From a virus (taxonomy: Duplodnaviria; Heunggongvirae; Uroviricota; Caudoviricetes), in IMG/VR virus record IMGVR_UViG_2740892218_000001, positions 1 to 20,634 of that record: a DNA stretch of 20,634 nt; one strand, written 5' to 3'. A program made the translations under genes and the position numbers. Positions 860 through 20,398 of the stretch are shown here, one piece after another. Positions within the stretch are counted from its first letter, which is position 1, and each line of letters starts with the position of its first letter. The notes under the pieces are model-generated. The model saw nothing but the letters and a program-made list of their open reading frames with translations. It made no database searches and was not told the origin of the DNA.

Positions 860-869
860 AGGTGGGTTT
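845..869 (-). terminator. Stem-loop (aaacccacc / tgaa / ggtgggttt) with a U6 run on the minus-strand transcript; candidate intrinsic terminator between the convergent mnt and YafO-like genes
   Basis: Perfect 9-bp inverted repeat at 848-856 / 861-869 with a 4-nt loop; on the minus strand it is followed by TTTTTT (845-850). The mnt stop codon sits in the loop. On the plus strand no U-run follows. Confidence 0.45.
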
Positions 870-1317
870 AGTCAAACATAGTGTTTCTAAAGTCTCTCGC
901 ATACCCTGCCAACACTCTCATTCTATTATGATTGTTAGCAGACATGTGAGCTACAGGATGAAAAAGAGCAATCAATGAATACCTGTTCTCATCAAAAAGA
1001 TTTTGTGCATAAACGAGAGCGGTATTGGAAGTTTTATGCCACTGCAACTTTTGCGGTGTGCTGATATCTGTGCCTTTTTTTATTGGCTCAAATTTATTTT
1101 CACCAATTGCTAAATGAAGGTGCATAAGGCCTGCATCTTCAATATCAGGAGGTCGATGATAAGAGGTGTCTCTGCCAAAATAGCTGGGCAACGTTCCCGT
1201 AGACTTGTAGATGATAAAATCATCTACAAGTGTTTGTTTTAAATCAGGAAACTCAACAAAAACCGGGGAGAAAAAATAGTCAAAACTATCCTGATTATAT
1301 TCCACGGTTACTTGCAT
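868..1317 (-). CDS. YafO-family toxin homolog (type II TA toxin family; ribosome-dependent mRNA interferase in E. coli YafO), 149 aa
   Basis: Translation carries the motifs DFIIYKSTGTLPSYFGRD, HLHLA, LVYAQNLFDE...LIALFHP...NNHNRMR, which align with E. coli YafO (DFISYKRDGVLPDIFGRD, HIHLA, LVYCQGAFDE...LIAILKP...DNNQMHK) as recalled from memory. GAGG RBS 5 nt upstream of ATG; AT-rich relative to the structural genes. Confidence 0.65.
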   Translation of the reverse strand: MQVTVEYNQDSFDYFFSPVFVEFPDLKQTLVDDFIIYKSTGTLPSYFGRDTSYHRPPDIEDAGLMHLHLAIGENKFEPIKKGTDISTPQKLQWHKTSNTALVYAQNLFDENRYSLIALFHPVAHMSANNHNRMRVLAGYARDFRNTMFD

Positions 1318-2477: not shown

Positions 2478-4388
2478 TTACTGCTGTGTTGCCTCAGTAG
2501 CAAACAGCGGCCTGACGGCATTTGCAGCGTTACTTAACGCTCTTTCATAGGCTGGTGTTCCAGCTTTAGTGTTTGCCAGACGTAAGAGCGCATTCCTTGC
2601 TGCTTTGGACTCGTACAAGCGCATGATTGCACCGAAACCAGCCTCAAGTCCCAGTGATACACCAAGGGTTGCAGTTGCGCCAATCGTTCTAATCCTGTTA
2701 GCTTGCGATTGTCCTGTCTGTGTTACTACATTTGCGGCGTCCGACCTTGCTGTTTGCTGTAGAACTTCATGAAGAGCATCAAGCTCTTTCATGTGTCTCC
2801 CACTGAATATAGTGTTATAGATCTGACCGTCAGATTGCGACTTCAACTTATTTAACTCGGTAAGAAATTTTGTTGGCGAGTCTCCTGCTTTTTCTGCAAT
2901 CTTGCTGATATAAGCAGCACGCATAGCGTTCTTTCCATCTTCACTAAGAGCAGGCCATATCCTCTTAATATCTGATGGTTTTCTGCTGAATACAACGCTG
3001 TTTATTAGCTCTGGAGTAAACTCTTTTTTAGCTTTGTTGAGATTATTCGCAATCCTTTTATTGAGAACTTTATTGAAGACGTTGGAGTAGTCAGAGTTTG
3101 CTTTGACGTATCTGGCGGCCTCTCCAGCCCCCAAATACCGCGCTGCGTTATTCCTCAAATCTGCCCCCATTGCCCTCTCCACGGCATCAGTTGCGGCTTT
3201 CGCGCTATTAGGAAAAACCATGGCATCTCCCTGAATACTTTCCCTCAAGGCTGACCGCAACTCTCTCAATAGACCAAAATCTATATCTGGTTTAGCAAGT
3301 TCTTCTCGCAAATCGGATAACCCGCGAATCAAATCCTTATTTGCCACTTTCCCAAGCCTGTTAGCTCTGGTAAGTACGTTGTCGATAACCTTAATAGATT
3401 TTGATGTGTCAACAGGTGTGTCTCCCATTTTGGTTGTAATGTCTTCAATAACGCTTCCGGCCGAATCCTTCCTTGACTTCAGAGAACCATACAGATCGTC
3501 AACAACAACTGATGGGCTATATTCACCATATTTCTCAAGCTGTTTTTTAACTAGCTGACTTCTTTTTGCATATTGCTCAGCTCGCTTTGAGCCTGTTCCC
3601 AGCAAAGCCCCCTCAGCATCCTGAGTAAGACCACGAGTGAAAGCATTTTTCGGCGGGATTACATCAGATGTCATTGGTGTCACGCCCATCGATTCTGATG
3701 TGGCAATTTTCTTCGCCACTTCTGGTGCAATATCACCTTTAAAGGCAGTTATTCCACGCTCAAGCCCTTTTGCAACAGTATTAACAGCACCACCTGTTAG
3801 CATGCCAACACCTATATCTGTTGCCAGTTTTCCCGCATCATTTTTCTCACTGTTTGCGGCGAGCGATCCGACTGCGTTTTCTGCCAGAAGACGGGCTGCG
3901 CCTTGAGTAATTCGACCAGCAAGTGTTGGCGCCTGAGTTGAAGCGCCGCCAACGCCAACAGTAGTCAGGTAAGGCAATGCCTCCGCAAACACCCTACCTT
4001 CTGTCGTTTGTGGAGTCAGAGCACCTTGCTGAAGTCCAAACGCCTGCTCTAATCCCTGAGTTGTTACTCGTGGCGCTGGTTGATATGTTCCATCGCCAAT
4101 ACCGAGTTTACCGCCAGCCCATGCCGCCGCGCTTGTTACAGCATCGGCAACTGATGCTGGTATATTTGCCACATTTACACCAGCCTGCACCAGTCCGCGA
4201 CCAGTTTCTTTTACTGCTTCGCCGAGGTCAGACATAAATCCATCTTGCTGTTCTACAGGCTGCTTTTGGTTTTGAGTTGGTTGATTACTGGAGGACAGAA
4301 TCTGAGCGATGCGACGTGCTCCCTCAGTATCACCAGCAGCATCAGCATTCCTTAACGCCGTCATCAATTGTTCACGACTATAAGCCAT
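2478..4388 (-). CDS. Ejection (internal) protein, P22 gp16-like, 636 aa
   Basis: Position (last of the 4-10-26-14-7-20-16 block), size, and TAATG stop/start overlap with the upstream gp20-like gene; Ala/Gly-rich composition typical of ejection proteins. Confidence 0.75.
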   Translation of the reverse strand: MAYSREQLMTALRNADAAGDTEGARRIAQILSSSNQPTQNQKQPVEQQDGFMSDLGEAVKETGRGLVQAGVNVANIPASVADAVTSAAAWAGGKLGIGDGTYQPAPRVTTQGLEQAFGLQQGALTPQTTEGRVFAEALPYLTTVGVGGASTQAPTLAGRITQGAARLLAENAVGSLAANSEKNDAGKLATDIGVGMLTGGAVNTVAKGLERGITAFKGDIAPEVAKKIATSESMGVTPMTSDVIPPKNAFTRGLTQDAEGALLGTGSKRAEQYAKRSQLVKKQLEKYGEYSPSVVVDDLYGSLKSRKDSAGSVIEDITTKMGDTPVDTSKSIKVIDNVLTRANRLGKVANKDLIRGLSDLREELAKPDIDFGLLRELRSALRESIQGDAMVFPNSAKAATDAVERAMGADLRNNAARYLGAGEAARYVKANSDYSNVFNKVLNKRIANNLNKAKKEFTPELINSVVFSRKPSDIKRIWPALSEDGKNAMRAAYISKIAEKAGDSPTKFLTELNKLKSQSDGQIYNTIFSGRHMKELDALHEVLQQTARSDAANVVTQTGQSQANRIRTIGATATLGVSLGLEAGFGAIMRLYESKAARNALLRLANTKAGTPAYERALSNAANAVRPLFATEATQQ

Positions 4389-6477: not shown

Positions 6478-6933
6478 CTATCTCCCGTGATTCAGGAAGT
6501 CGATTAGTTCTTCGCGTGTGGCGCTGTAAAAAGTCACGTCATCCACGCCTTTAAAGTATTTCTTGATGGTTCCGACACGCTTAAGGCCAATCATTGCGCA
6601 GTAAATCTGCCCGTGGCGGAATTTGCGTGCGGCGAACGATGTGACGCACTGAACGGTGGTGTTAGTCAGAATGTATCGCCAGAACGCCAGCCCGATTTCC
6701 TTGCTGAAGCCACGAACCTCTGGCAGGTACATGGCGTGGCAATCGAATGTCAGCGGCTGAATCTCCTGATAGTAAACAATGCCGCCAAACTGACCGTACA
6801 CGTTAACCTCAAAGTAACGGCATTCAGGCTTGTAGTCGTATCCATCACCGTTGTTGCTTCCGGCGATAATGTCTGGGTGATTTCCCACGGCTTCTATCAG
6901 GTCGATGTTTCGCGTTGGTTTGAACTGAATCAT
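6478..6933 (-). CDS. P22 gp14-like protein, 151 aa
   Basis: Located between needle and gp7-like genes exactly as gene 14 in P22; start abuts the needle stop. Confidence 0.6.
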   Translation of the reverse strand: MIQFKPTRNIDLIEAVGNHPDIIAGSNNGDGYDYKPECRYFEVNVYGQFGGIVYYQEIQPLTFDCHAMYLPEVRGFSKEIGLAFWRYILTNTTVQCVTSFAARKFRHGQIYCAMIGLKRVGTIKKYFKGVDDVTFYSATREELIDFLNHGR

Positions 6934-7781
6934 TACTGCTCCGCGATTATCTTGATGGTTGTGGCAGTAAACGCCGCACCATTTGACTGGATGGTTAACG
7001 TACTGCCATTTGTGGCAAGAAAGCCGTCTTTATCCACGCTGAAAAACGTAGCTAACAGGATGTTATCGGTTGTTGTCGCCGCATTACGACTGCTGACCAA
7101 CGTGTCAGGAACAGAGCCGGAAAAGGTTAGCTGCATTGACCTGTTGGCGGTTCCGCTGGGCCACGTCCCGACGATCGACAGCTTGAAGAACAAGGTTTTG
7201 TTCTCGTTGAACACAACCATCTTGTTGTTAACGGTGTCGAAGAATGGTGCCAACGTGCCGGATGACGGCGTGAGCGTTTTCAGCAGGCTAACAAGGTTAG
7301 TAGGCGCTGTCGGGATGGTTACAGATACGCCAGAGTAAACAACCTCTGACTTCTTGCGAGTAGTGGCATACTCAAGAGCATCGATGCGCGTTTCATGGTC
7401 TGAAACCTGCGACTCCAGCGACTGAACTCTGGTATCAAGCGACGAAATATCGCTTTCATTCTGAGCTATTCGTGTTTCATGTTCCTGAAGAGTTGATTCT
7501 GCCTGGCTGATTCGCTCCTCATGATTAACAAGCGTTGCTTCCGCAGCAGAAATTCGCTGCTCATGGTCAGCGAGAATCACATCCTGCTCATCGTTCCTGA
7601 CTTGTGCGTCATAAGCGCCCTGTCCGGCCTCGTTGGCCTTGTTCGCCACGTTACCAACATCAGTGCCCTGCGCGATAACGTAAAGCAGATATGACTGCGA
7701 GAAGATATTGCGTGGAAGAACTGATGTGTCGAGCCGCGTAGCCTGGATGATTACCGGCACATTGAGATTCGAATCCGCCAT
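6933..7781 (-). CDS. Tail needle (gp26-like) with a C-terminal knob extension, 282 aa
   Basis: N-terminus [43 protein letters not shown]... matches the P22 gp26 N-terminus as recalled; central repeats ([36 protein letters not shown]) indicate a trimeric coiled coil; about 110 beta-rich C-terminal residues are absent from the 233-aa P22 needle and resemble the Sf6/HK620-type knob. Confidence 0.8.
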
Positions 7782-9958: not shown

Positions 9959-11254
9959 TCACGCAGTCTGGTTAGGCAGACCAACACCAATTGCCTCTGG
10001 TCGTACAGCACATGCTGAATACCACACAGCAATACGGCACTTACCAGACAGAGTGTTGATATCACCCTGCGTTGCGAAGATGCCGTTAACACCAATACCA
10101 GGAATGCTGAAGGAAGAAGTTTTCATGCCAGCAAACAGTTCATGGGTTACCGGAATCGGCTGAGACAGCAGGCGGATTGAGTCATCAGCCCAGAACACGT
10201 TAGCGGTGGTTGTTGCCACGTTCAGAACGTTTACCGGAGTGGTATCAGCAAGAGAGGTGTTTACGTTAGCGTAAGCCTTCTCTTCTTTTGTCAGTGACGC
10301 GTCATCCAGCGCAATCGGCTTCGGCGTGATTTCGATGTGAGTACTATCGATCACTCGGGTGATTGAGAAAGTCGCATCATCAGTCAGCACGTTCTTCGCC
10401 ATCTGAGATAGGAATTTCACACCAGTGAAGCTGATTTTGTCGCCGCGCTTAAATCCGGTGGTAGATGATACGGTCACCGTTGCAACACGGTTGTCGACGT
10501 TCTCTTTGTTACCATCGGTATCAAGGGTGTATGCCTGCGGCTTAAACTTCTGCGCACCAGAAACAGTTACACCAGTAGCGGTTGACTTGGTAACTGCCGG
10601 AAGTTTCGGTGAGCGAAGAATTTCATCAAAGCCAGCAATCTGACGCTGAATAGTACCGTTACGATACGCTTCTTCAGGAACGCGCCCAAAGATGTCACCA
10701 TCTACCAGGTTGCGGCCTGCTTTGCGGTAATCGTCAGGGTTCAGGAAGTAACTGATGCCCATATCGCGGTTTAGCTCACGGGAGAACATCAGGCGCTCTG
10801 CATCAGACACAAAATCCCAGCCAGACAGGCCAGTAGATGGACCAATTGCGCGGGTATCGTGAACAACAAGCGAGCCCATTTCAGTTGCCTGTTTGGCAAT
10901 TGCTGACTCAATGTTATTCGCCAGTTTTTTGGCGGATGCCTGGATGCGGCGACGGTAAGAACGCTCATCACGCAGGTCATCTGCACGAAGCTCGAAAAAA
11001 TCGTTATCCGGGTCGCCCATGTTGCATTTCACGGAGAGTTCCAGAATCCCGGTTGCGTTGCCAGTTAAATCCCAGCCAGTCTGGGTTGGCGCTTCCTGCT
11101 CAACAGGCATCCACACGGTGTTGCTTGAACGTTGCATGGATTCTGCCGGAGGGGTGTATTTTGTCACTTTGGACGCCATTGGCGTCAGGTTCTGGACGGT
11201 TTCGATGATTTCATCGATAGCGTAAGTAACTAACTGCCCTTCTTTGAGAGTCAT
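9959..11254 (-). CDS. Major capsid (coat) protein, P22 gp5-like, HK97 fold, 431 aa
   Basis: [54 protein letters not shown]... and ...[39 protein letters not shown]...[14 protein letters not shown] closely parallel P22 coat as recalled. Confidence 0.92.
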
Positions 11255-11321
11255 ATATTGAATACCTTACTTTCTTTATGTGCTATACTATTGTTATATC
11301 AACATATAGCGCATTAGGGTT

Positions 11322-11843
11322 ATGAGCATGGAACTGAATGAATACTTCGAATACCGCGATGGTTCTTTGGTTTGGAAAGCCAGAAGCTCTGAGTTTTTCA
11401 ACAACAAAAAGAATCGCAACTATCACAACGTTTGGAATGCAAAACACGCTGGGAAAGTTGCTGGTCTTTTAGAAAGCAATGGATATATCCGCATAAGAAT
11501 TAACGGCATTAAGTGGCTAGCACACCGCATCGTATGGGTAATGTTTAACGGAGATATTCCAGAAGGCATGGAAATTGACCATATAAATGGGATTCGCCAC
11601 GACAACAGAATTGAAAATCTTCGTCTTGTGAAAAAATCAGCAAACCAAAGGAATAGAATCAAACTATCTAAAAATAACTCCAGCGGAATATCTGGAGTTT
11701 ACTTTTGCAACACGCGGAAAAGATGGATCGCTCATAAGCGACTGCTTAATGCAAGAGTGCAAAAAGTATGTTCTTCATTCGAAGAGGCGAAAGAAGTAAT
11801 CAGAAAGTTTGACGAGGAAAACAACATCACGATATCGAAATAA
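11322..11843 (+). CDS. HNH homing endonuclease with C-terminal AP2-type DNA-binding domain (free-standing HEG), 173 aa
   Basis: HNH motif region EIDHINGIRHDNRIENLRLVKKSANQRN and AP2-like segment SGISGVYFCNTRKRWIAHKRL; AT-rich; opposite strand to the whole structural operon; stop codon abuts the scaffold stop. Alternative start ATG at 11328 has better spacing to AGGG. Confidence 0.75.
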   Translation: MSMELNEYFEYRDGSLVWKARSSEFFNNKKNRNYHNVWNAKHAGKVAGLLESNGYIRIRINGIKWLAHRIVWVMFNGDIPEGMEIDHINGIRHDNRIENLRLVKKSANQRNRIKLSKNNSSGISGVYFCNTRKRWIAHKRLLNARVQKVCSSFEEAKEVIRKFDEENNITISK

Positions 11844-12755
11844 TTATCGAATTCCTTTATTCAGTTGTGCCTTAAGCTTGCGGTACGTCTCTACATCCCC
11901 TTTGTTTGCTGCCGCCTCCATCTGCTTTTCAATCGCAGAGATATTTGCAGCAACAGCATGTCCCTGAATGGGCTCATCAGGTAACGGGGCTTCTGAAACA
12001 GGCTTGGCTCGAGGCTTGAGAGTTAAACGTTCTGACAGTCGAGTGAGTTCAATCAGCGCTGATTGCCCGTCCATCGCCAGCAACTGGCGTGTTTTCTCAG
12101 GATTAGCACCAAGGTGATACATGAGAGCAGCGGATTTCTCCGGGAAGAGGCGCATGATGTCGGCACCGACTGCTGGCGGCACCAGTTGCATGAATGCATC
12201 CTCTTTCTCCTGATAGTCAGGGATATTGAGCTTTTCCGCTGCGTCGTAGTGCTTACGGGCTGCCTCGACGTATTGCGCTGATTGCTGGGTGAACTCCTGA
12301 GTTTTGCGACCCTGCTCGGCGACAGCCTGGCTTCGTGCGTCCATAGCCTTGATCTGCCATTCACTGTTTGCCTGCTGGAAGGCAGCCAGTGCGCGGCTCT
12401 GGTCATAGTCGTACTTAGCCAGTGCATCTTCGGAAAGATAATCGTTAGGGTCTGGTTGTTTTGGTAACTCAGGGTTCACCCGCAGGTGCTCCGGCAACTC
12501 TCCACGCTTAACCGCTTCCATCTGTTGCTCAAGCTCACGCTGGCGTTTGCGTTCGATGCGGCGACGGGCAAATTCAGCATTAGTTGCCGGGTCTTGTTTT
12601 GGTTTCTCATCGTCTTTCAGGACAATCTCGAAGCCTTCTTCCTGACCTGCGTTGTCGTTGGCATTATCGACAACTAAGCCATCAGCAGATGCCGCTGCAT
12701 GATTGCCGGGCAGGGTTAATTCTTCAGAAGCCTGAATGTCGGTGGTTTTGTCCAT
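11844..12755 (-). CDS. Scaffolding protein, P22 gp8-like, 303 aa
   Basis: Same length as P22 gp8 (303 aa) and long near-identical stretches as recalled ([115 protein letters not shown]). Confidence 0.9.
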
Positions 12756-12768
12756 GATTAACTCTCTC

Positions 12769-14937
12769 TTATTGAGGTGTCTCGGCTACTCCGCCGGAGG
12801 GGATTTGAACTTGACGCATAAGATTCGCGAAATCCATGCGTTGTGAATGAGTCTGGTCTGCATCTTTAAGAAGCAGCTCAGCGTTAGCACGAGCATCTTT
12901 GCTGCGCTGTTGCTGGAATTGACCTACGAGCTTGAGGTACTCACGCAGTTCTGCCTGCTTATCAAGGTCCATATTGTTGAAGATTTCTGCAATCTTCGCG
13001 GCGTTGAGTTGGTTTTGGGCTTCAACCTTGGCGGCTTCAACCTGAATCTGCGCCTGTTGGTTCTCTGCCTTGAGCAATTCAGCCTGACCTTGCAGAAGGA
13101 TGCCCTGCGCCTGAATTTGCTCTGCTGATGGCTGCTGCGGCTGCTGTTGAGCCTGCTGTACCATCTCCATCTCTTCAGGTGTTTCTGGTTTCTTCAGCCC
13201 CATCATCACCAGTTGCTTGTTCGCGTACTCTCGCATCATCTCGACGCCTTTACCGTCAAGCAGCGTGAAGTATTGCAGCATCAGCATCTGGAACTCTGGA
13301 GTACCTTGCGGAACCTTGGTTAGCAACTCCTGAATCTCTGCGCGATTCTGTTCCTTCATGCTCTGGAAGGATGGTCCGACGTCTGTATAGCACTCATAGC
13401 GACCGCGAATATCGTTGAGTGTGACCACATTGCCAGACTGGTAATCTACAACTTGCGCATAGAGTTGAACGTCTTTCTCGCTTCCATCTTCAAGTGTCAG
13501 CGTTACATGACGAGGAACGTCATAAATATCGTTGACCATTGAGGCATAAATCTCGCCATCACGTCGCATTGCGGTAGCCAGGTTATCCTGAAACACGTAT
13601 GTCTCAAGGTCTGCCCGCATGTTCAGTTGATTGACGGTATCGAAAGCGACCTGAGAGTTTGCTGCCTGCGCATCCACACCAAGACTAGCCACCTCTTTCA
13701 CTGCGTTGGTGGCAGCCTCAAGCATGTAAGCGTTGGCTTGCGGCACTTCAGGGTTTTCCATGTAGGAGATTGGACCAATCGGCAGGTCGTTGCCGTTTTC
13801 ATCGGTCCTGTTCTGCAGATAGTACGGATAGTCATCATTTCCACCGTACATGTATTCGTAGCCTTCGATTTGCTCAGGGAAGAAGGTCGGTTTCTTCTTC
13901 GGTGAACGAGCAACAATATCGGCGTTGAATGACATGATCATGTTACGAAGGCGTTGACCGTCTTTCGTCAGCCTTACCACTCCTTCGTAGCACTCCTTGT
14001 CACCAGCGAATGACCATTCGCCATACACTGGAACGATTGGAATATGCTCTCCGGCTATCTTCTCGCGGTCTTTCAGTATCTGCGTGCAGGTGATGATCGA
14101 CTTATACACACGCCGACGCTTCACCTTGCGCTCTGCTACCTTAATGAATCCACGATTAGCCAGGTCGTCGATGACGTCTTTGATATCCTGCTGGTAATAG
14201 CTGACCGGCTCACCTGTCAGCGGGTCGCGGTAGATGAAGACTTTCTCCTTCTTCTCTTCTACCTCGTAATACTCAGCGACGTAGACGACATCATTCGATA
14301 CCCACGGAAACAGCCATGTGTCGTTCGGATTCTGGAAAGATGGCAGGGTGTCAGGATCAATACCGTAATCCTCTGCGAACTCTTTCCAGCCATTGCGCGA
14401 CAAGGCGTTAATCACCGTGCAATGCTTAGCGTCGCTCTTATCCATCTGCTTGCTGTTTGCGTCCCATATGACGTGTGAGCAGGCTTCATGGATTGGCAGG
14501 CGTCGGATTACCTGATTGTTGCTTGTTGGATCGTTGTCTTCGTACTGCGTGACCAGACGCCATGCACCAACGCCAGACTCTATCTGCTCACGAACGCCAA
14601 CGTTAACAGCAATCTTTGCCGTGTTATGGCGCATATCAGTACGATACATTCCCATCAACACATCGGCAGCATCAGGATTAGCGCCGTCTTTTGGTCTGAA
14701 TAGAACGTCGATAGGGTTCCGGCGCATCTCTGCGACCAGTTTCCTGACCACCGGGCGAACAACATCGAATTGTCCGCGATATTGCAGGGTGGTGTAGTTT
14801 GATAGCCAGTCATCCCATTGCGACACTCGGCTAAAATACAGGTCATTTGTCGCCTCGGTTCTGGCCTCATCGCTTGCTGCCCAATCCCTGTCAAACCGAA
14901 GGAGAATGGTTCGCAATTTGTCGTCTTGGTCGGCCAT
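12769..14937 (-). CDS. Portal protein, P22 gp1-like, 722 aa
   Basis: N-terminus [67 protein letters not shown]... closely parallels P22 portal as recalled; size (P22 725 aa) and Gln-rich C-terminal helix region fit. Confidence 0.92.
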
Positions 14938-16397
14938 TATCTACCTCTGGAAATTGGACGAATTGGAGCCGGTAATGGCTTAGTTGGTTTGTTTTTGACT
15001 ACCGGGAATGCAAACGTCAGGGCTAACGCATCAGCGCGGTTTGGTGAAGGAACCCCACGGCGCTTCATGTCATCTTTGGCCTCAAGGACGATGCGCCCAT
15101 CGAGCTTAACCCTGTACTCAGGAGCAACGATTTCGTCAGCTGTTTGCTGATCATCGATACTTCCCCCTTCTTTGAGCCATGACTTCATTGAGTTCCACAT
15201 CTCACCGCGCTTGTTCAGCATGCCGGGGTCTTTGGATTCACCCCCAAAGTTAACCAGCTGCCACTTCCTTCCCCACGACCTACCTATTGAGTGAATTCCG
15301 GTGCCATACCCGAAGTCTATGAACACTGCATCTGCCTTATGCTCATCCTCAAATCCTGCGACGATTTGCGCGAACTTAACGTCGTCATCTGTTTTCGGGT
15401 AGGTGCCAAGCAGGCGCGCATGAAGACCCTGGCGAAGGTAAATTGATGCCTCATCACTACCTGTGTAAGCAGGGTCAACGCCGATTATTTTGGATGCGAA
15501 TGTGTAAGAGCCGGGCTCAAGCGTGCGAGACATGGCCTCATCCACATATGCCTGAGGTATGAACTGGACTTCTGATGTCGATGGGAATAGACCGCGAACA
15601 CGTACTTTAAAGAAGTCGCTGTCTTCACCGTAATCCTTGCGCCACTCTTCGATGAGCTCTTTGTTGGTCATCTTTGCCAGGCGGCTATCAATTTGACGTC
15701 GACGCCATCGGTGTTTGAACTTGCGGAAGCACTCTCGGAATCGACCGGTGTTACGCGTCGGGTTCCCAAATGCAAACCAGAAAGGCTCGCCGTCAGTAAG
15801 GCCGCCCTCTGCTACTTCCCAAATTTTGTCAGGAACCGCTGAGGCTTCATCGAAGATGTAGAACGGGCTTGAGTTAGCTGCATGCAGGCCAGCAAATGAC
15901 TCGCTGTTCTCTTCCCGACACGTCTGGCCGTCACAGCGCCATGATTCCATGTGATCCACATGGTAGATGTTCATGTTGCCTTTGCCGTTGTTGTACTCAA
16001 ACCAGTGACCGGTGATGCACCGCTTCTTCCACTTGCCCAGCTCGCCCCATGTTTTGGTGCGAAGCTGTTCAGAGGTATTAGCTGTCACGACGCCCTTGCA
16101 GAAAGGACGAGTGCTGAGGATGTACAGAATGACCCAGGCAGTTAGAGCACTTTTACCGATACCGTGACCAGAGCTGGTAGCGCAACGATAGGCTTCAACA
16201 GGTTTAACACCGTCGAAGTTATTAGTCCTGATTGCGTCTCCCCAATCTGTCAGAAACTCTTTCTGCCATTCATCGGGGCCGTCAAAGCCATCAAGCTCAC
16301 CAGTTCCCCAATCAAACGCATACATAACGAAGCCAAGCGGATCGTAAAAGAATCGACCCATATCATCGGCAAGCATTGCCTCGAATTCTGACGACAT
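14937..16397 (-). CDS. Terminase large subunit, 486 aa
   Basis: Position upstream of portal with TAATG overlap; Walker A-like GHGIGKS segment; size typical of P22/Sf6-type TerL. Confidence 0.88.
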
Positions 16398-16834
16398 TAC
16401 TCACCTCTCGCGCGTTTTCTGGCCTCCTGAATGCGCTGAATCAGGTTAACCTCTCCGGTGTGTTCAACTTCTTGCTTATCGCGCCATTTATCCTTCTGTC
16501 GGTTCTTAAGCCAGAAAATGGCAGCGGTTGTATCAGGCGGGTAATACTTCTCAAGCGGAGTTTCGACAATTCTGTTTTCAATAACACGAATATCGATGTC
16601 TGGAGCCACGAAGCCCATAGCGCGTTGATAAAGACGATCACTAACTTCTGCATCAGCGACGGCCTTACCCTTTTTTATGGACTCCGAAAACTTAGGATAA
16701 TCAAGCTTCCACTTGTTAATAGTTGACTCACTGACTTCGAAGAAATCAGCAAGCTCTGCGTCTGTATAGCCCAGCAAGCACAGTTTGCGTGCCTGTTCGG
16801 CGTACGCCTCTTGATACTTTGTTGGGCGCGCCAT
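16397..16834 (-). CDS. Terminase small subunit (HTH-type, Sf6 gp1-like), 145 aa
   Basis: Immediately upstream of TerL with TAATG overlap; N-terminal HTH-like region (LGYTDAELADFFEVSESTINKWK) resembles Sf6-type small terminases as recalled; not P22 gp3-like. Confidence 0.7.
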   Translation of the reverse strand: MARPTKYQEAYAEQARKLCLLGYTDAELADFFEVSESTINKWKLDYPKFSESIKKGKAVADAEVSDRLYQRAMGFVAPDIDIRVIENRIVETPLEKYYPPDTTAAIFWLKNRQKDKWRDKQEVEHTGEVNLIQRIQEARKRARGE

Positions 16835-19909: not shown

Positions 19910-20398
19910 CTATGCTACATGTTTAATTTTCTCTACACGTTTCCGGTTTTTAAACGCACTATCCAGAACCGGGTAAATCATAAACAACGAAGCATTGAGG
20001 ATTTCGTCAACTTCCCGGCGACAGGTTGCGAGCGATGGTTTTTGAATACGCCCGCCGCCCCGGCATAACATCTTGCGAGGTCTTGCGACACGATGATAGT
20101 AAGATGCAATGGCATGCTTGGAAGATCCATGAGCGTAGTAGCTGAGGAGGATGCCAAAGGCTTTCTTGTCAATGTACATGACGGAATCGACGACCTGAGA
20201 AATCAACATTCCATCATCATCATTACACATTGGCCTTGTCATAACTCTTCCCGGCTCTACGCTCTCCATGAACTTCGCTATTACGCTGCTCATGCGCTTT
20301 TCCAGACGACCTGAATAAACCCATGCGCCCCACAGTTCAAGCCAGCCATTCAGCCAATCGTGCTGTTCTTTGGTGAGGTTTAGTTCTCTTATGCCCAT
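19910..20398 (-). CDS. Q: Late-gene antitermination protein Q (Q21/933W-type family), 162 aa
   Basis: Position immediately upstream of tRNAs and the S-R-Rz cassette; N-terminal LELWGAWV segment resembles the ERWGAW motif of 933W/phage 21 Q as recalled; GGGAGAA RBS upstream of ATG. Confidence 0.7.
   Translation of the reverse strand: MGIRELNLTKEQHDWLNGWLELWGAWVYSGRLEKRMSSVIAKFMESVEPGRVMTRPMCNDDDGMLISQVVDSVMYIDKKAFGILLSYYAHGSSKHAIASYYHRVARPRKMLCRGGGRIQKPSLATCRREVDEILNASLFMIYPVLDSAFKNRKRVEKIKHVA

Follow-up and report, generated by a model that had tools for sequence, protein, structure and literature searches.

A 589-bp cassette separates the scaffold and coat genes in the late operon of a P22-like E. 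coli phage (Caudoviricetes) represented by IMG/VR record IMGVR_UViG_2740892218_000001, which was analysed over positions 1 to 20,634; this whole stretch of 20,634 nucleotides (nt) is called the window here. The cassette carries, antisense to the operon, an open reading frame (ORF) for a protein with an HNH nuclease domain and an AP2-type DNA-binding domain. With a probability of roughly 80%, we consider it to be a free-standing homing endonuclease gene (HEG) that is specific for one site in P22-like phages, the junction of scaffold and coat. The argument is built on the domains of the protein, on precise empty sites in close relatives, on a short stretch of altered coat sequence that always accompanies the cassette, and on the low diversity of the cassette compared with its flanks.

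Organization of the cassette

The HNH gene is situated between two complete ORFs, after the scaffold stop and before the coat start, and is not part of an intron or intein (coordinates of all features are collected in Table 1). An earlier note, made from the letters of the window, had described an AT-rich insert of 589 bp with a free-standing gene that is antisense to the late operon and whose stop codon abuts that of the scaffold gene. This description was borne out in every part: the proposed insert is exactly the DNA that is absent from close relatives, its GC content is 0.38, the ORF is on the plus strand and the Q-antiterminated operon on the minus strand, the gene stands between two genes, and the motif taatta is present where the two stops meet, the HNH stop codon TAA at 11841-11843 being followed at once by the scaffold stop, in complement, at 11844-11846. 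The abutting arrangement recurs in two of the three other lineages with the gene at this site (loci L007 and L008), and an 11-bp spacer separates the stops in the third (L013). In L013, this spacer and the last scaffold codons form a GC-rich hairpin, CAGGGGC..GCCCCTG (L013:3339-3351), followed on the HNH strand by TAATTTTG; it is plausible as a terminator for the HNH gene, and the window lineage is without it.

The GC content of the cassette (0.379, compared with 0.507 for the coat gene, 0.526 for the scaffold gene and local flank values of 0.50-0.55) is 10-14 points below that of the flanks in all four lineages. The start of the HNH gene is ambiguous, as the Shine-Dalgarno (SD) motif AGGG sits 2 nt before the ATG at 11322 and 8 nt before the ATG at 11328. 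Within the ORF, the codons for SSGISG at 11676-11699 form a hairpin with an 8-bp stem and a T-run on both strands, resembling a bidirectional intrinsic terminator. As a conserved element this hairpin was rejected, because it is weaker in L007 and all but missing from L008 and L013, and it is probably an incidental by-product of these codons. No second HNH paralogue was found in the window. A tblastn search with the HNH protein matched two places each in the phages Louie (PQ850616) and Dewey (PQ850600), both of which hold a second, more distant HNH homologue outside the region homologous to the window; this second match, elsewhere in the genome, is weak.

Domains of the endonuclease

The HNH domain that had been claimed in the earlier note was confirmed by Pfam HNH_3 (PF13392) with E=3.9e-22 and 78 bits against a cutoff of 24.8, residues 66-110 covering profile positions 2-46 of 46. 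PHROG 99, "HNH endonuclease", was matched at E=1e-50. The residues D86, H87, N99 and N108 are invariant among 50 aligned homologues and line up with residues of I-HmuI. Among solved structures, I-HmuI is the closest both in sequence (E=8e-4 for the protein alone, 5.5e-8 for the family profile) and in fold. An AlphaFold2 model has a mean predicted local distance difference test (pLDDT) score of 89.1, with 92-95 in the catalytic region. PADLOC matched the protein solely with its generic "homing endonuclease" models, and NCBIfam gave no match to it. The protein is 100% identical to the annotated "HNH endonuclease" of Louie and Dewey.

The AP2-type segment named in the earlier note stood by fold and family homology, but not by the Pfam threshold, which this copy does not reach: PF00847 scored 15.7 bits with the whole protein and 17.6 with the C-terminal fragment against a threshold of 33.3, and only model positions 1-19 of 54 were covered. 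Among the 50 aligned homologues, 21 match PF00847 at E<=1e-3 (best value 1.4e-11), and the family profile finds the AP2 proteins WRI1 (E=1.6e-5) and TEM1 (E=1.4e-3) in the PDB. The C-terminal 50 residues are predicted to form a three-stranded antiparallel sheet on one helix, a modelled fold that superposes on solved AP2/ERF domains. Because of the 21 matching homologues and the match to WRI1, we accept the protein as an HNH-AP2 endonuclease, the AP2 domain of this clade having diverged below the Pfam threshold.

Filled and empty sites among relatives

Louie and Dewey have filled sites, and their segment is 99% identical to the window. The site is empty in the phages IME10, CurroJimenez (CurroJimenez_Bas106), APC_JM3.2 and HZ41, whose flanks are about 96% identical and in which a junction query of 1501 nt spans 911 nt. 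Alignment to these empty phages places the left junction directly after the scaffold TAA, and at the empty sites the stop of scaffold shares bases with the start of coat in the motif TAATG. The same overlap is present in the Salmonella phages ST64T, As3 and SEN22 and in the Proteus phage Brookers; its occurrence in phages of E. coli, Salmonella and Proteus marks the empty state as the ancestral one. The earlier note had pointed to such insert-free genomes as a means to define the exact insertion site and any target duplication. The site could indeed be fixed exactly, but a simple target-site duplication was not found at it; instead, there are a 39-nt stretch of apparently converted coat sequence and a candidate relic that bears a ribosome-binding site, both described below.

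A census of 5426 complete E. coli genomes gave 218 with this junction at an identity of at least 95%. The site is filled in 20 of the 218; the other listed ones are precise empty sites, and the rest match the flanks only. The gene is thus absent from about 90% of the genomes with the same head module, and about 9% of the prophages carry it. The junction occurs in diverged versions in about 120-160 records of P22-like phages, of which Louie and Dewey alone are filled. The mobility that the earlier note had supposed agrees with this distribution (20/218 E. coli genomes and 2/~120-160 phage records), the gene being far from present here in all relatives. For two diverged lineages, L009 and L013, the phage collection held no lineage-matched empty site (best matches 72-76% identical), and the empty sites of Proteus, Salmonella and E. 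coli phages served as contrasts for the diverged lineages. The copy of E. coli EEC_W5 (CM130020, L077:2795-3309), at the same site, is decaying: a frameshift has split it into ORFs of 85 and 102 amino acids (aa). The ORF listing of this locus shows no coat gene either.

These data bear on the idea that the protein is a domesticated packaging HNH protein, comparable to HK97 gp74, which acts with terminase, and that this role accounts for its position in the head cluster. The gene lies in the morphogenesis module, two genes from portal and three from terminase, and HNH proteins from modules of this kind may act in packaging (PMC10448857). However, it is missing from about 90% of near-identical prophages and from the viable phages IME10, CurroJimenez, APC_JM3.2 and HZ41, whose portal, scaffold and coat genes are the same. 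Between it and the terminase ORF are the genes for portal and scaffold, its strand is opposite to that of the operon, HNH_3 plus AP2 is the architecture of a homing enzyme, and one natural copy is frameshifted. A packaging role is effectively refuted because the gene is dispensable, and its position and strand add to this.

A coat patch that travels with the cassette

A patch of substitutions at the 5' end of the coat gene accompanies the cassette in 15 of 15 aligned filled loci and in 20 of 20 filled E. coli genomes, and is found in none of the four empty phages. The N-terminal 13 residues of the coat protein read differently in filled and empty genomes. Downstream of coat nt 39, the filled genomes abruptly rejoin the common sequence, and no converted tract is present on the scaffold side. 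We interpret the patch as a co-converted target allele that would be immune to cleavage.

Comparison of lineages narrows the candidate target further. At coat codons 4-7, six empty phages from at least four lineages (CurroJimenez, IME10, ST64T, As3, SEN22 and Brookers) read AAY GAA GGT CAA; the window, L007, L008, L013 and E. coli 98195, which has a hybrid allele, read (AAA/CGC/TCC/TCG) GAA GGG CAG. This is a perfect partition at one amino-acid position and two synonymous positions, all HEG-bearing or hybrid sequences having a non-Asn codon first, and other synonymous sites of the patch vary among the HEG-bearing lineages. The recognition core is thus probably located around coat nt 10-21.

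Eight empty E. coli prophages have a hybrid coat allele, in which nt 1-11 are of the empty type, nt 12-39 are of the cassette type and the TAATG overlap is intact. The allele occurs on coat backgrounds both with and without a 3-nt indel. Five hybrids were examined, and since they have the identical junction and similar proximal haplotypes, the allele probably stems from one rare event, which would be either a repair that copied the target region without the gene or a loss of the gene. The hybrid allele is probably resistant to cleavage, and its junction at coat nt 9-12 may mark the point of the break.

Ahead of the coat ATG lies AAGGTATTCAATAT (AAGGAATGCAAT in L013), which is similar to the canonical 3' end of scaffold genes, AAGGAATTCGATA. 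The likeness to AAGGAATTCGATA extends to L013, although the scaffold gene of that lineage has a different end. This is suggestive of a relic of the ancestral target carried inside the element.

Mobility and age of the cassette

Among 14 filled loci, nucleotide diversity (pi) is 0.0039 in the cassette (589 nt) and 0.0037 in the patch (coat nt 1-39), compared with 0.0113 in the last 600 nt of the scaffold gene and 0.0230 in coat nt 40-600; that is, the diversity of the cassette is 3-6 times below that of the flanks. Outside the patch, flank haplotypes are common to filled and empty genomes, and the nearest flank neighbours of the filled loci L014, L024 and Dewey are the empty phages CurroJimenez, HZ41 and APC_JM3.2. 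The closest pair is the filled L014 and the empty CurroJimenez, which are identical at 1958 of 1958 positions on the scaffold/portal side and differ on the coat side at 21 of 1969, 14 of these mismatches being the patch; L014 is 97.9-98.4% identical to other filled loci. The sequences of this pair are best read as a gain or loss in one genetic background, and the haplotype data as a whole support a recent mobility of the cassette.

The association with the site seems to be much older. In a search of 5.8 billion proteins, the next closest homologues had identities of 82, 74 and 59%, and all of them are encoded antisense between P22-type scaffold and coat genes in three other metagenomic lineages. 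Identity then drops to at most 49%, in HEGs at other sites in other phages, and a scan of the GTDB representative genomes with the clade alignment gave only relatives of at most 49% in unrelated contexts and no new members at this site. Across the lineages, the identities of the HNH protein (82/74/59%), the coat protein (89/72/68%) and the scaffold protein (74/74/51%) fall in parallel, and this parallel argues for an ancient association of the gene with the scaffold/coat site.

The rough parallel would also suit an ancestral resident that has been inherited vertically, was lost from most lineages and is no longer mobile or never was, and the frameshifted copy and the gene-less hybrid allele show that decay and loss occur. 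Such a history is nevertheless very improbable. The exact TAATG state is ancestral, and a random deletion would not restore it precisely; the cassette is 3-6 times less diverse than its flanks; it is found on several flank haplotypes that are each common to empty genomes, one of them 100% identical over 1958 nt; and its GC content has not ameliorated in any lineage.

Expression signals and consequences for the late operon

The spacer between the coat and HNH start codons is 60-67 nt long across the four lineages, and the same elements are kept in it. In L007 the -10-like element reads TGcTATAAT, L008 has TGcTATACT, and L013 has TATAAT and lacks the TG. In the window, the HNH transcript is predicted to start near 11296. 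A two-hexamer sigma-70 scan of 10900-12200 gave no promoter upstream of the HNH gene, and no -35 element was found. In all four lineages the -10-like hexamer is inside a palindrome with a stem of 8-10 bp, the sequence and register of which differ in each; the palindromes of the four lineages show no column-by-column positional homology. On both strands, they fold with z-scores of -1.8 to -5.4. The palindrome may serve as an operator; alternatively, it may act at the RNA level, as an element of the late transcript that directly precedes the coat SD motif.

The insert breaks the translational coupling of scaffold and coat at the TAATG stop/start overlap, and a cassette-borne SD motif, TAAGGT, would replace the lost coupling to scaffold termination. 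Late transcription would presumably have to cross 589 nt of untranslated antisense sequence. The window encodes a Q homologue, and an antiterminated polymerase (lambda Q, P22 gp23) should tolerate such sequence. Since Louie and Dewey, both temperate, are viable and form plaques (PMC12243541, PMC11990801), the phages tolerate the broken scaffold-coat coupling.

Proposed homing cycle

In the proposed cycle, the HNH gene would be transcribed from its own -10-type promoter, against the late operon, and the enzyme would recognize the coat 5' end of a cassette-less relative, most likely around codons 4-7, 10-21 nt from the insertion point, and nick or cut there. Recombinational repair on the template of the HEG-bearing genome would then transfer the 589-bp cassette and, with it, coat nt 1-39 of the donor, as their co-inheritance suggests. 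The carrier itself would be shielded by the largely synonymous substitutions in this 39-nt stretch, and the Q-type antiterminator would be expected to permit late read-through of the insert. Intronless homing, co-conversion and marker exclusion have been described (PMC2988022), as have HEGs with HNH plus AP2 and their clustering near capsid genes (PMC10448857). All stages of such a cycle seem to coexist in sequenced material, namely susceptible empty sites, filled sites, putatively resistant empty sites and a decayed copy.

Several points weigh against this cycle. The window protein falls short of the Pfam AP2 threshold. The sharing of flank haplotypes could stem from ordinary recombination in the flanks and not from homing, and the parallel divergence of the HNH, coat and scaffold proteins also fits a long vertical residence with occasional loss. 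The patch is only 1-39 nt from the cassette, and linkage alone could explain their co-occurrence without immunity; in addition, filled lineages inherit the coat 5' end with the gene and are thus not independent observations. I-HmuI is a nickase, and with a nearest solved relative that nicks, the classical double-strand-break pathway is not assured. The promoter of the HNH gene is deduced only from the conserved -10-like motif, and both the assignment of the target and homing as such (cleavage, nicking and biased inheritance) rest on the comparison of sequences.

An alternative that has to be considered is that the gene is a prophage moron or a defence or exclusion gene and no selfish homing element, the product of which cuts incoming relatives without the immune coat allele. 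It would be transcribed in lysogens from a promoter of its own and be retained for the protection that it gives the lysogen or its phage in competition, with spread by gene conversion as a by-product. The cassette is AT-rich, points against the operon and includes a -10-like element of its own, kept in four lineages, all of which are moron-like features; it is found mostly in prophages of E. coli chromosomes, its catalytic residues are intact through the 59-82% divergence of the clade, which suggests selection on the protein, and the homing-endonuclease models of PADLOC match. However, the low frequency (about 9% of the prophages with this capsid module) and the frameshifted copy indicate that the gene is dispensable, and PADLOC matched no dedicated defence-system model beyond those for homing endonucleases. 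Moreover, this role does not exclude homing, as one and the same molecular event appears as marker exclusion when viewed from the opposite side (PMC2988022). As a replacement for homing we regard it as unlikely; as a secondary reading that does not compete with homing, an action in defence or exclusion exerted from the prophage is compatible with all observations.

A more specific and decidedly speculative proposal combines several features. The cassette would be a prophage-borne weapon with built-in regulation, which is repressed but expressed at a low level in lysogens and cuts the coat gene of superinfecting P22-like phages that are devoid of the HEG. Jointly with this, and by analogy with the autorepression of I-TevI, the palindrome would be the operator for the AP2 domain of the enzyme or for a phage regulator. 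The eight hybrid prophages would have survived through a conversion that made them resistant but did not bring in the gene, and their junction at nt 9-12 would mark the break.

Genomic context

A P22-type late operon on the minus strand fills the window, from a Q-family antiterminator through the ejection proteins, as judged from the ORF list and Pfam. The two ORFs at the terminase positions gave no Pfam match at E<=1e-3, and the corresponding gene on contig L008 matches Terminase_6N/6C. After the coat gene, the operon continues with tail accessory proteins of the gp4 and gp10 types, the tail needle and the ejection proteins, where the ORF at the gp16 position (2478-4388, 636 aa) is without a Pfam match. 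The tail needle (6933-7781, minus strand) has an Sf6-type knob domain (Pfam Phage_tail_NK, E=1e-117), which illustrates the mosaicism of the module. Beyond the ejection-protein genes, an ORF for 149 aa (868-1317, minus strand) matches the YafO family of type II toxins (Pfam E=3e-22) and may be a toxin-antitoxin moron; the equivalent region of P22 contains immI and accessory genes.

Table 1. Positions of the cassette, its signals and the neighbouring late genes in the window
Feature	Position	Strand	Details
Cassette missing from empty-site relatives	11255-11843		589 bp; from alignment to empty phages and GC content
HNH-AP2 endonuclease ORF	11322-11843	+	173 aa; alternative ATG at 11328 gives 171 aa
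HNH_3 catalytic domain	11517-11651	+	aa 66-110; D86, H87, N99, N108
AP2-type DNA-binding domain	11682-11819	+	aa ~121-166; three beta strands and a helix
Abutting convergent stops (TAA/TTA) of HNH and scaffold genes	11841-11846
Spacer between coat and HNH start codons	11255-11321		67 nt; coat SD, -10-like element, palindrome, HNH SD
Coat SD, TAAGGT	complement of 11264-11269		9-10 nt before coat ATG
Palindrome	11278-11314
-10-like element, TGcTATACT	11281-11289	+
HNH SD, AGGG	11316-11319
Patch, coat nt 4-39	11216-11251	-	14 substitutions; always accompanies the cassette
Predicted recognition core, immune form	11234-11245	-	coat nt 10-21, AAA GAA GGG CAG
Hybrid coat allele, loci L078-L082	11216-11254 (window equivalent)	-	E. 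coli ECONIH6, 98195, TO6, NMBU_W05E18, UID2309220041
Coat gene (gp5-type)	9959-11254	-	Pfam P22_CoatProtein, E=6e-164
Scaffolding gene (gp8-type)	11844-12755	-	Pfam Phage-scaffold, E=2e-179
Portal gene	12769-14937
ORF at large-terminase position	14937-16397	-	486 aa
ORF at small-terminase position	16397-16834	-	145 aa
Q-family antiterminator	19910-20398		followed by holin and Rz

Significance and relation to known systems

The kind of element is well known, and the ORF is already automatically annotated as "HNH endonuclease" in GenBank/RefSeq. The genome announcement of Huey, Dewey and Louie and the BASEL paper do not mention the HNH gene. No description of the insertion was found in the literature on P22-like phages and homing endonucleases, a search that stopped short of subscription papers such as comparisons of virion assembly in Virology.

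Mechanistic work on phage HEGs has mostly been performed with lytic T4-like phages. The filled phages Louie and Dewey and the nearly isogenic, empty CurroJimenez come from one laboratory and grow on the same E. coli K-12 host (PMC12243541, PMC11990801), and they offer a ready system in a temperate phage for determining the homing frequency, the length of the co-conversion tract and the cost of a broken scaffold-coat coupling. A concrete recognition sequence, AAY GAA GGT CAA at coat codons 4-7, is predicted. For annotators, the proposed conversion would explain a patch of high divergence at the coat 5' end that might otherwise pass for a recombination breakpoint of other origin.

The closest solved relative, I-HmuI of Bacillus phage SPO1 (PDB 1u3e), is an HNH homing endonuclease encoded in an intron, whereas the gene of the window is free-standing and intergenic. 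The C-terminal DNA-binding part of I-HmuI is not an AP2 domain, and its identity to the window protein is about 23%. The same order of an N-terminal HNH and a C-terminal AP2 domain is found in the HNH-AP2 HEGs of phages, cyanobacteria and protists, including "IPA-HNH" of Vibrio phage ICP1 (PMC10448857), and like the gene of the window, these HEGs are located beside essential phage genes, including capsid genes. In contrast to IPA-HNH of ICP1, which is of a divergent type, the HNH domain of the window protein is a canonical Pfam HNH_3 domain; compared with the HNH-AP2 HEGs in general, its AP2 domain is below threshold, and its host is a temperate P22-like phage or prophage and not a lytic phage.

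The free-standing HEGs of T-even phages (the Seg and Mob families, with SegF, SegG and MobE; PMC2988022, PMC2790892) are likewise intergenic and present or absent between collinear relatives, and the Mob proteins likewise combine an HNH_3 nuclease with a separate DNA-binding domain. Co-conversion of adjacent markers and protection of the carrier by differences in the target are known for these genes, and the same is proposed here. However, cleavage by the T4 enzymes takes place hundreds to thousands of bp away from the genes that encode them (PMC2988022), whereas the candidate target in the P22-like phages would be only about 10-40 bp from the insertion, a short distance that is more reminiscent of intron-encoded enzymes than of the T4 HEGs. 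The gene of the window also differs from the T-even HEGs in its setting, as it is antisense within a single long late operon and splits a translationally coupled gene pair.

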